Assembly: GCF_003334765.1 (NCBI RefSeq)
Contig: NZ_QOWT01000115.1
Length of the DNA stretch: 529 nt
Source: Escherichia coli
GTDB taxonomy: Bacteria; Pseudomonadota; Gammaproteobacteria; Enterobacterales; Enterobacteriaceae
Reading direction: 5' to 3' (one strand)
Part shown: in pieces, positions 1-529 of the stretch
How positions within the stretch are numbered: the first letter of the stretch is position 1
Layout of the letters: each line of letters starts with the position of its first letter
The notes under the pieces: model-generated
The model's input: only the letters and a program-made list of their open reading frames with translations
Told to the model about the DNA's origin: nothing
Database searches by the model: none
Program-made: the position numbers and the translations under genes

Positions 1-10
1 ATCCCGCCAT
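1..10 (-). CDS. Probable 5' end of a downstream minus-strand gene running off the left edge (only M-A-G visible)
   Basis: Minus strand reads GAGGGA (complement of 18-23), 7 nt, then ATG (complement of 8-10), starting 21 nt after the TAA of the 95-aa ORF. This is typical operon spacing. Only three codons are visible, so the product cannot be assessed. Confidence 0.35.
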
Positions 11-17
11 CTGCGAA

Positions 18-23
18 TCCCTC
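18..23 (-). promoter_or_regulatory. Candidate Shine-Dalgarno (GAGGGA) for the downstream minus-strand gene
   Basis: Plus tccctc at 18-23 is GAGGGA on the minus strand, 7 nt upstream of the ATG at 10-8. Confidence 0.35.
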
Positions 24-31
24 AATATTTC

Positions 32-319
32 TTATTGCATCCCCCTGTGAAGATAATAATTGTCGCCCGGCATCCACACCACGTCCGTCATCCCAGCCAC
101 GAATAAATTCACCGCGTAAAGTCGCACTCGAAGAGCATCAGCCAACTGTTTCCTGATTTTTTCAGGTAACTCGTCGGCATCGCAGAAACAACAACGCTCG
201 ATCATGTTGAAAGCCGATTCGTAGAACTGTTTTTGCTGAGTGTCGCTGAGACAGGAAAAGAGCGACGTTACGATGATTTTATTAATTGCATTATCAAGTT
301 CTTTTTCATCAAAAGTCAT
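32..319 (-). CDS. Complete ORF encoding a 95-aa hypothetical small protein (MTFDEKELDNAINKII...WMPGDNYYLHRGMQ); function unknown
   Basis: ATG is the complement of 317-319 and TAA the complement of 32-34. An in-frame stop lies immediately upstream (complement of 332-334), so ATG is the first possible start. AGGAAA Shine-Dalgarno (complement of 326-331) sits 6 nt before the ATG. The translation has mixed, protein-like composition with an acidic N-terminus and four Cys (C-x19-CC-x-C). I do not recognise the family. Confidence 0.7.
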   Translation of the reverse strand: MTFDEKELDNAINKIIVTSLFSCLSDTQQKQFYESAFNMIERCCFCDADELPEKIRKQLADALRVRLYAVNLFVAGMTDVVWMPGDNYYLHRGMQ

Positions 320-431
320 TTGATTTTCCTTTTATGTATACGGGCTTAAAAGGATACCACCGAGCCTGAAGTGGTGAAAAGACAGGCACATAACAGCTAA
401 GTATTTTCAACCAGAGAGAATCCTTAGCGTT
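320..431. promoter_or_regulatory. AT-rich divergent intergenic / promoter region between the minus-strand small-protein operon and the candidate plus-strand gene
   Basis: About 40% GC (hand count over 320-420) against about 60% GC for 421-529. The best plus-strand sigma70-like pair is AAGACA (379-384), a 17-bp spacer, then TATTTT (402-407), which is weak. I found no convincing -35/-10 pair for the minus-strand ORF. Confidence 0.35.
326..331 (-). promoter_or_regulatory. Shine-Dalgarno / ribosome-binding site (AGGAAA) for the 95-aa ORF
   Basis: Plus-strand tttcct at 326-331 reads AGGAAA on the minus strand, 6 nt upstream of the ATG at 319-317. Confidence 0.55.
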
Positions 432-529
432 GTGGTGAATGCGGCTCAGCGTACGCGGGTTAAGGTTGAGGCTGACAGTCGACCTTCTGTGGATACCCAC
501 CCGCCTGGTGTGCAACCTTCGCCAGGCAC
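432..529 (+). CDS. Candidate 5' end of a divergently transcribed gene, GTG start, continuing past the right edge; N-terminus (M)VNAAQRTRVKVEADSRPSVDTHPPGVQPSPG...
   Basis: This plus-strand frame has no stop from 378 to the window end. The first possible starts are GTG 432-434 and GTG 435-437; there is no in-frame ATG. G is enriched at codon position 1 (about 14 of 32 codons), and the amino-acid composition is diverse. The start coincides with the AT-rich to GC-rich transition near 430. Weaknesses: the only purine-rich SD-like run (AGAGAGAA, 413-420) is 11 nt from GTG 432, and rare Arg codons CGG and CGA are present. Confidence 0.3.
   Translation, partial: MVNAAQRTRVKVEADSRPSVDTHPPGVQPSPG

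Follow-up and report, generated by a model that had tools for sequence, protein, structure and literature searches.

Among the closest described systems to the locus considered here is the sas antisense RNA of phage P22 which, as Ranade and Poteete reportedly described in 1993, switches translation of sieB; another is DicF, which is processed out of an operon transcript. P22 sas is made on the early-left strand and pairs with the 5' end of the divergent, prophage-expressed gene. In a 2026 RNA sequencing (RNA-seq) study, P22A-sas is a 127-nt RNA that extends from the complement of the sieB start codon through a core shared by many lambdoid phages (PMC13397905). Here, we analysed a 529-bp stretch of Escherichia coli DNA (contig NZ_QOWT01000115.1 of assembly GCF_003334765.1; hereafter the window, meaning the whole stretch) and in particular its intergenic spacer at 320-431. 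The sequence bears out that this spacer has 112 bp and lies between ATG 319 of a minus-strand gene and GTG 432 of a plus-strand open reading frame (ORF), as given by an earlier sequence-only reading, which had found no promoter for the minus-strand gene and had invoked an alternative sigma factor or an activator.

With moderate confidence, we read the spacer as the junction of two conserved RNA-level modules of a lambdoid early-left operon that has been stranded in a prophage remnant. The first module (323-394) would be the control region of the 'sieB slot', composed of a covarying hairpin (327-354) and an invariant core (356-390). The second (399 to window-equivalent ~622) would be an STnc100-like structured RNA ending in a DicF-like terminator. 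All of these pieces are variants of phage elements that are already known. The features of the spacer and of the RNA to its right are as follows.

356-390, plus strand: invariant 35-nt core ACCACCGAGCCTGAAGTGGTGAAAAGACAGGCACA, 94% identical (2 substitutions in 35) to lambda 34379-34413 and to P22
327-354, plus strand: hairpin SL-B, with arms TCCTTTTA (327-334) and TAAAAGGA (347-354), a 12-nt loop and a TA spacer to the core
356-360 with 371-375, plus strand: hairpin SL-C within the core, predicted fold
351-378, minus strand: proposed sigma-70 promoter of the minus-strand gene, with -35 TTCACC (378-373), a 16-bp spacer and extended -10 TGg-TATCCT (359-351)
327-331, minus strand: Shine-Dalgarno sequence AAGGA for ATG 319, with a 7-nt spacer, within the distal arm of SL-B, read from the sequence
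379-407, plus strand: earlier promoter candidate AAGACA-17-TATTTT, 8/12 without TG, judged not to be a promoter
396-428, plus strand: predicted hairpin SL-D (GCUAAG.AUUUUC ... GAGAAU.CUUAGC), just upstream of the closing stem of the RNA domain
399-529, plus strand: 5' two-thirds of the STnc100-like structured RNA, the whole element reaching window-equivalent 622 and covering positions 1-206 of the RF02076 model

The conserved core and its adjoining hairpin

Bases 323-394 of the window match the sieB upstream control region of lambda and P22. In both phages the core has ral on one side and, on the other, sieB, whose orientation is divergent from that of the early-left operon; the arrangement in the window is identical, with all 35 nt of the core aligned upstream of the divergent gene. 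The core is also present in more than 100 other lambdoid phages, whatever lies downstream of it. In the P22 RefSeq record (NC_002371), the sieB promoter (29690-29720) and start site (29727) are located just beyond the core. Because these promoter features adjoin the core and P22A-sas runs through it, the core is homologous to the 3' stem-loop region of the P22 sas antisense RNA. By analogy with P22, an antisense RNA would also be made in SfV-type phages.

Scanning IMG/VR with the core yielded 122 matches in the loci fetched, whose left-hand flanks comprise 42 distinct sequences. SL-B adjoins the core in essentially all of these 42 unique flanks, where it is built from 23 different stems and keeps a related loop motif. 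A covariance-model alignment revealed two-sided changes at all six pairs of SL-B, with 95.7% of the cells able to pair compared with 38-59% when the partners were slid, and none of 500 shuffles reached the observed value. Of the structurally conserved stem-loops that mark a sieB/sas region, it is SL-B that is represented in this way, SL-C being invariant and thus uninformative. MAFFT and RNAalifold, applied to 41 flank variants, recovered the invariant GCCUG/CAGGC pairing alone; they left the variable hairpin unaligned, its stems being too dissimilar in sequence, and so missed SL-B, for which a covariance model had to be used.

Inside the core, an alternative pairing of 364-368 with 383-387 is predicted in addition to SL-C. 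The two core helices, ACCAC/GUGGU and GCCUG/CAGGC, would interlock in a possible H-type pseudoknot, and such a modelled fold could protect the 3' end of the RNA or be recognised by a conserved factor. Together the helices extend from 356 to 387, almost the same limits as those of absolute conservation (356-390). Variants from Kati, SfIV and mEp460 keep both core helices, with no covariation between them.

The P22 and lambda loci (P22, locus L007 1186-1250; lambda, locus L004 1400-1475) have two hairpins between the core and sieB, with near-identical loops (CUGUAGGGG in the sas sense); of these, one extends over the -35 region of the sieB promoter and the other over its start site. The same two-hairpin layout with another loop word (UUGUUGGGG) was observed in Kati (locus L011, ~1400-1500) and SfIV. 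That the loop motif is repeated suggests a partner, RNA or protein, with sequence specificity. Two viral contigs (L015 and L126) carry the module of core and hairpin twice, ~650 bp apart and with different flank types, and because of these two-copy contigs a tandem duplication of the module with different cargo is possible.

We also considered whether the core or its surroundings could act as a terminator. With regard to lambda tL1, neither lambda record carries a tL1 annotation and the literature was uninformative. An intrinsic terminator at the core is unlikely because no U-run follows the hairpin on the plus strand; the core may be a Rho-dependent site. A putative rho-independent terminator annotated in SfV (307-339, plus strand; ATCAAA-AGTCA-TTTGAT and then TTTTCCTTTT) was rejected, its stem being A+T-rich and unflagged by the terminator scan. 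The annotated region includes ATG 319 of the minus-strand gene and runs into the beginning of SL-B.

A candidate promoter for the minus-strand gene

A sigma-70 scan of both strands of 320-431, requiring at least 9/12 matches to TTGACA/TATAAT and a spacer of 16-18 bp, returned no site, the best being 8/12. The statement of the sequence-only reading that the spacer lacks a strong canonical promoter is therefore correct. So is its remark that the minus-strand TTGAAA (410-405) has no usable -10: with a 17-bp spacing the hexamer is GCCTGT, and the closest TAT-like one comes after just 12 bp. TTGAAA was dropped as a -35 element on this ground. Its claim that the minus-strand gene has no properly spaced -35/-10 pair was not confirmed, as such a pair, TTCACC-16-TATCCT, does exist. 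The hexamer occupies 356-351 and is preceded by TG at 359-358 on the minus strand. This 359-351 site has TG at -15/-14 together with T1, A2 and T6 and is accordingly a candidate extended -10 element. The predicted start is at ~345 (346-344), which gives a leader of ~26 nt; the minus transcript would begin near 345 and would carry the AAGGA ribosome-binding site before ATG 319.

A second scan, based on approximate position-weight log-odds for both strands of 300-445 and with the chance level taken from dinucleotide shuffles, gave its top score on either strand to TTCACC-16-TGg-TATCCT (9.1 versus 5.6 for AAGACA-17-TATTTT). A site as good or better was held by 23% of the dinucleotide shuffles, and sites of 8/12 occurred on average 1.4 times per shuffle. 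Because neither candidate beats chance by sequence alone, comparison with other phages was needed to separate the two.

This comparison favoured the minus-strand site. The pattern TTCACC-N13-TGN-TATNNT was found in 79 of 137 loci. Viewed on the minus strand, class-1 loci (the window, SfV, SfII, e14 and ~12 others) have the order TGG of the core, TATNNT, SL-B, an AAGGA-type site and an ATG 35-40 nt from the core. At the core edge, TATCCT, TATCTT, TATTCT or TATGCT is kept in ~15 flank variants, each with an ATG 35-40 nt beyond the core and the same Shine-Dalgarno layout as in the window. These variants carry unrelated small cargo genes (phrog_3311, phrog_8894, phrog_2605 and others) and at least five different right-hand flanks. 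Since both the cargo genes and the right-hand flanks are unrelated, the core is the sole upstream sequence common to all class-1 genes. T1, A2, T3 and T6 are conserved, positions 4-5 are free and TG lies upstream, which is the pattern predicted for an extended -10 element. Retention across ~15 variants supports, without proving, that TGg-TATCCT is a promoter. It is most likely that the minus-strand gene is transcribed by sigma-70 from this built-in weak -35/extended -10 promoter, whose actual use we infer from the conserved sequence.

In the P22/lambda-type order, also viewed on the minus strand, the core is followed by SL-B, the -10 element (TAAACT, TAATCT, TAGACT or TAAAAT), a second B-type hairpin and an ATG ~70 nt from the core. 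The mapped P22 sieB start site falls in the loop of the second hairpin, and the -10 TAAACT lies between the two hairpins.

The conservation of TATNNT might instead reflect the anti-Shine-Dalgarno arm of SL-B (TCCT:AGGA) plus the conserved TA spacer. The minus-strand mRNA would then come from farther upstream, either right of the core or in the STnc100-like region, and SL-B would sequester the ribosome-binding site. The TCCT arm does pair with the Shine-Dalgarno AGGA in the window and in several variants, SL-B also folds in the minus-strand RNA of 320-431, and its wobble pairs are compatible with selection on the minus strand. However, e14-type variants have the Shine-Dalgarno sequence outside the stem and still keep TATGCT, and no better minus-strand promoter is found between 376 and 445. 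In addition, class-1 loci have several unrelated right-hand flanks, so that an upstream promoter would need to be reinvented each time, and the mapped P22 sieB start is downstream of the equivalent hairpins. We regard this alternative as unlikely and the extended -10 promoter as the better account of the conserved hexamer.

That either gene or both require an alternative sigma factor or a dedicated activator, the interpretation first offered for this spacer, appears very improbable, and nothing here calls for such a factor. The absence of a 9/12 sigma-70 match could be taken in its favour, as could a YhaJ binding site near the e14 ymfH region detected by DNA chromatography and mass spectrometry (PMC12133099) and a mention of RpoN binding at Salmonella STnc100 copies. 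However, the sigma-54 pattern TGGCAC-N5-TTGCW has no match in 320-431 within 3 mismatches, by which a sigma-54 promoter in the spacer was ruled out. The GGCAC...GC of the core has a spacing of 9 nt rather than 10 and is absent from other right-hand flanks. Moreover, the homologous P22 gene has a mapped promoter with a TAAACT -10, and a conserved extended -10 candidate, overlooked by the sequence-only reading, is at hand. The observation made by that reading was partly confirmed, and its interpretation was partly supported.

The terminator scan also flagged as terminator-like the minus-strand hairpin 375-356 followed by ATCCTTTTAA; the U-rich tail of this hairpin is missing from other class-1 variants, such as TATCTTGGTG and TATGCTGGAG.

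The plus strand, the STnc100-like RNA and the lost pL

On the plus strand, the full element that starts at 399 matches RF02076 with 42.3 bits (E 6.6e-8 in a 501-base search; gathering score 47), and its relatives score 29-43 bits. Searching Rfam with the window alone gave no match at E up to 1, the STnc100-like match appearing only with the full element past base 529. The closing stem and three of the five internal hairpins of RF02076 are kept, two pairs of the first hairpin being non-standard. Beyond the window, a DicF-like terminator hairpin was observed at window-equivalent 560-622 (locus L001 12560-12622), with GGCGGTACCAGC...GCTGGTACCGTC and then CTTTTT.

SL-D is present in both the minimum-energy and the centroid folds of 320-431, with a z-score of -2.28 on the plus strand versus -1.29 on the minus strand. 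A hairpin is also found at the equivalent place in ST64B, the comparative support being weak. The e14 copy of the element folds as a closed multi-hairpin domain (z = -2.6), and the hairpin at ~503-527 has compensatory changes between the E. coli and Salmonella types. Close relatives of the element differ by indels of 1, 2 and 8 nt, none of which is divisible by three. Together, the indels and compensatory changes suggest that the first 120 nt at the 5' end are non-coding.

The annotated GTG-432 ORF, a ymfH homologue labelled "frameshifted" by PGAP, overlaps this RNA element (e14 copy, locus L008 3079-3390), and the PHROG match of YmfH is limited to residues 60-96. The PGAP label is in keeping with a non-coding element having been set against the YmfH protein of K-12. 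The RNA module has probably been misread as the GTG-432 ORF, and ymfH itself would be non-coding. Over-expressed 'ymfH' has been reported as a trigger of a retron toxin (bioRxiv 10.1101/2020.06.22.160242), an effect that could be due to the RNA.

Several observations weigh against the reading of the spacer as two conserved RNA modules with a built-in promoter. The RF02076 gathering score of 47 is reached neither here nor in any relative, and because of this curated threshold we do not file the element as a member of STnc100. Canonical STnc100/PasD copies lie in the late region near Q, stx and lysis genes and not in the early-left operon; the present element is instead located between a cI-proximal accessory gene and yfdP/Q/R, xis and int, outside the usual genomic context of STnc100, and in view of where the canonical copies lie it would form a distinct early-operon subfamily. 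The covariance-model alignment of SL-B was fitted to the structure, and the window-type stem is off register by one base. Wobble G.U pairs in SL-B (six on the plus strand versus four on the minus strand) do not reveal which RNA strand has been selected. Scans of the window, including the 5' end of the minus-strand ORF, gave no convincing promoter for a sas-like RNA. To these points must be added that the proposed minus-strand promoter is no better than chance by sequence and that TATNNT can be read as an arm of SL-B.

The plus-strand promoter candidate of the sequence-only reading, AAGACA at 379-384 and TATTTT at 402-407 with a 17-bp spacer, is exactly present and is weak, as had been said (4+4 of 12, without TG). 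It could be a real weak sigma-70 promoter with a start at ~414 that drives ymfH or the STnc100-like element independently of pL, an explanation that we consider improbable. It has the correct spacing and is the second-best distinct site in the region. At the e14 ymfH-xisE-intE promoter region, Reg-Seq detected a start site active in one condition only, gentamicin, and in one of two replicates (PMC12133099). ChIP-exo revealed RpoD binding at Salmonella STnc100 copies (PMC10794520), and ymfH-xisE-intE have been grouped as one unit by RNA-seq assembly. However, the AAGACA -35 belongs to the invariant core, which precedes at least five unrelated downstream modules that all lack a -10 element at that spacing. 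The TATTTT hexamer coincides with positions 4-9 of the STnc100 model match and lies in the predicted SL-D stem, and a start at 414 would cut off the first 15 positions of the RNA model match. Besides, 38 of 39 conditions gave no activity of the e14 ymfH-xisE-intE region, and ymfH is grouped with repressor-controlled e14 early genes, the YmfT iModulon holding ymfH and other e14 early genes and not ymfI (PMC12133099).

Our preferred account of the plus strand is transcription from a distant pL. In SfV, the plus strand of the window is the direction of cI and of the early-left genes towards xis and int. SfV has TTGACA-16-CATAAT (11/12) directly after the cI terminator, pointing into the region and overlapped by two copies of an operator-like sequence that is also found at OR; on this sequence evidence, it is pL/OL. 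Its predicted start lies ~0.67 kb upstream of base 432, equivalent to window position -273 and inside the segment deleted here. Because the deletion at 118-120 removed pL and cI, the plus-strand elements are orphaned in this genome. In intact relatives, the plus strand would be transcribed from pL under cI control, and in the window this strand would have no local promoter. The sequence-only reading had named read-through from distant promoters as what would overturn it, and for the plus strand this is largely the case, intact relatives using the distant pL.

Two further observations concern this operon. The DicF-like terminator lies inside the early-left operon, upstream of yfdR, so that pL transcripts would have to read through it in SfV-type and e14-type phages, which have no recognisable N gene. 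In SfV, 'orf37, immunity region' (locus L002 2465-2653, minus strand) has two Rfam matches above threshold, to the C4 antisense RNA with 82 bits and to an IsrK-like RNA with 64 bits, which points to a P1/P7-type antirepressor control module in SfV, outside the window.

As a wider proposal that we put forward tentatively, the core and SL-B may define a widespread, uncatalogued family of cis-antisense RNAs, with sas as its only studied member, that would serve as a portable switch of the sieB slot, whatever its cargo, the gene being on from the built-in promoter in the lysogen and silenced by the early-left transcript in lytic growth; linked to this, K-12 ymfH would represent an early-operon small RNA subfamily of the STnc100/DicF type and not a protein gene. 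The portable sas-type switch, with its possible pseudoknot, and ymfH as an RNA are the moderately surprising wider points of this analysis.

The prophage remnant and comparison with known systems

In strain BE2-5, the dacD/sbcB interval is a short decayed prophage remnant, and the window lies inside it. The window has as neighbours a tail-fibre pseudogene and a tail-fibre assembly gene to one side and, to the other, an integrase, an excisionase-like gene, yfdT, yfdR and a "frameshifted hypothetical protein". The remnant contains several pseudogenes. Three features occupy the left part of the window.

1-120, minus strand: tail-fibre gene fragment, a pseudogene without N-terminus according to PGAP, continuing leftwards into the tail-fibre assembly gene, with a translation that includes FIRGWDDGRGVDAGR
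118-120, no strand: deletion junction with a 3-base overlap, where the tail-fibre matches stop (120) and the SfV/720R4 matches begin (118)
32-319, minus strand: chimeric 95-codon ORF, codons 1-67 from a phrog_3311 accessory gene and the last 28 codons from out-of-frame tail-fibre DNA

The window is a mosaic of three parts. Bases 1-120 are of tail-fibre origin (98-99% identical to tail-fibre genes of P1-like plasmids and 78% to HK97 stf), and bases 118-529 are of SfV/vB_EcoM-720R4 type (99%). Within the latter, the part from ~354 to 529 recurs elsewhere, namely in e14 (where it is annotated as ymfH), SfII, SfIV and mEp460; Salmonella ST64B shares only bases ~413 onwards. What is missing between the two sides of the junction is cI, pL/OL and all intervening lytic genes, SfV pL and cI mapping to window-equivalent -273 and farther left. 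Because of the deletion at 118-120, the minus-strand gene is truncated and fused. Its ORF matches the phrog_3311 profile with E 8.7e-46 over positions 1-67 of 81. The native gene in phage 720R4 (locus L003 3957-4202) has 81 codons, and the window ORF lacks its 14 C-terminal residues. The ORF matches phrog_3311 alone, a family of unknown function, and not sieB, and it gave no PADLOC hit. The homologies, the covariation, the architecture, the SfV pL and the chimeric ORF are direct observations.

It might be argued that nothing is expressed here, both ORFs being decayed relics and the spacer having no current function in this host. This alternative, which concerns present-day use and not sequence identity, is unlikely in our view. 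The minus-strand ORF has lost its native C-terminus, pL and cI are deleted, and the element is a remnant with several pseudogenes. On the other hand, the promoter-like motif, the ribosome-binding site and the RNA modules are intact, and the apparent frameshift is better explained by a non-coding element. Furthermore, the whole 529-bp arrangement is 100% identical in each of the 20 E. coli chromosomes listed as matching best, and 80% or more of the window is present in 73 genomes.

Sequenced E. coli genomes with the same deletion junction (locus L001 11811-12319) number 73 and come from birds, dogs, humans and water. Because of this identical junction in 73 genomes, the remnant must be old or widely spread.

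The reading of two RNA modules at the spacer replaces a "gene without a promoter" by a testable layout of promoter, antisense-RNA module and small-RNA module, one that is common to many lambdoid prophages of E. coli, Shigella and Salmonella. If it is true that the sas-type element, which is absent from Rfam, controls every cargo of the slot, it would be a general switch, on in lysogeny and off in lytic growth, for accessory and defence genes. The analysis also suggests that K-12 ymfH, and the PGAP "frameshifted" calls that copy it, may mis-annotate a structured RNA, which bears on studies of "ymfH" over-expression such as the retron-trigger screen. Little follows in practice for this strain, in which the element is a decayed remnant.

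Finally, we compared the locus with the known systems to which its parts are related. The lambda-type pL/OL has its counterpart in the TTGACA-16-CATAAT of SfV, with two OR-like operator copies after the cI terminator; in the window it is absent, having been deleted at 118-120. With DicF (RF00039, dicB operon of Qin), the element shares a 3' end (~560-614, outside the window) that aligns to the whole 52-nt model including the terminator, and dicF likewise lies inside a repressor-controlled early operon. The difference is that the element, at 19-28 bits, falls short of the gathering score of 48 and is a weak match to the single-stranded 5' part of the model.

The likeness to RF02076 STnc100/PasD covers the full model (1-206), the closing stem UGGUG...CACCA, an identical CCGGGAGGCACCCGG hairpin, one internal hairpin with a changed stem and the same loop, and a 3' terminator hairpin. 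In contrast to STnc100/PasD, the present elements remain at 29-43 bits, below 47, are located in the early-left operon beside yfdP/Q/R, xis and int, and are annotated as YmfH in K-12.

The P22/lambda sieB-sas region shares with the window its position between a divergent, prophage-expressed accessory gene and the next early-left gene, and a core that is 94% identical. Both also have a hairpin with a related loop motif adjoining the core, and in both the -10, a proposed one in the window, lies between hairpins. The two differ in their cargo, which is phrog_3311 in the window and not sieB, in the number of B-type hairpins (one instead of two) and in the distance from the core to the ATG (37 nt versus ~73 nt). 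In P22 and lambda, the -10 (TAAACT) lies ~30 nt farther on, whereas the proposed -10 of the window overlaps the core edge and would make use of the TTCACC and TG of the core itself.

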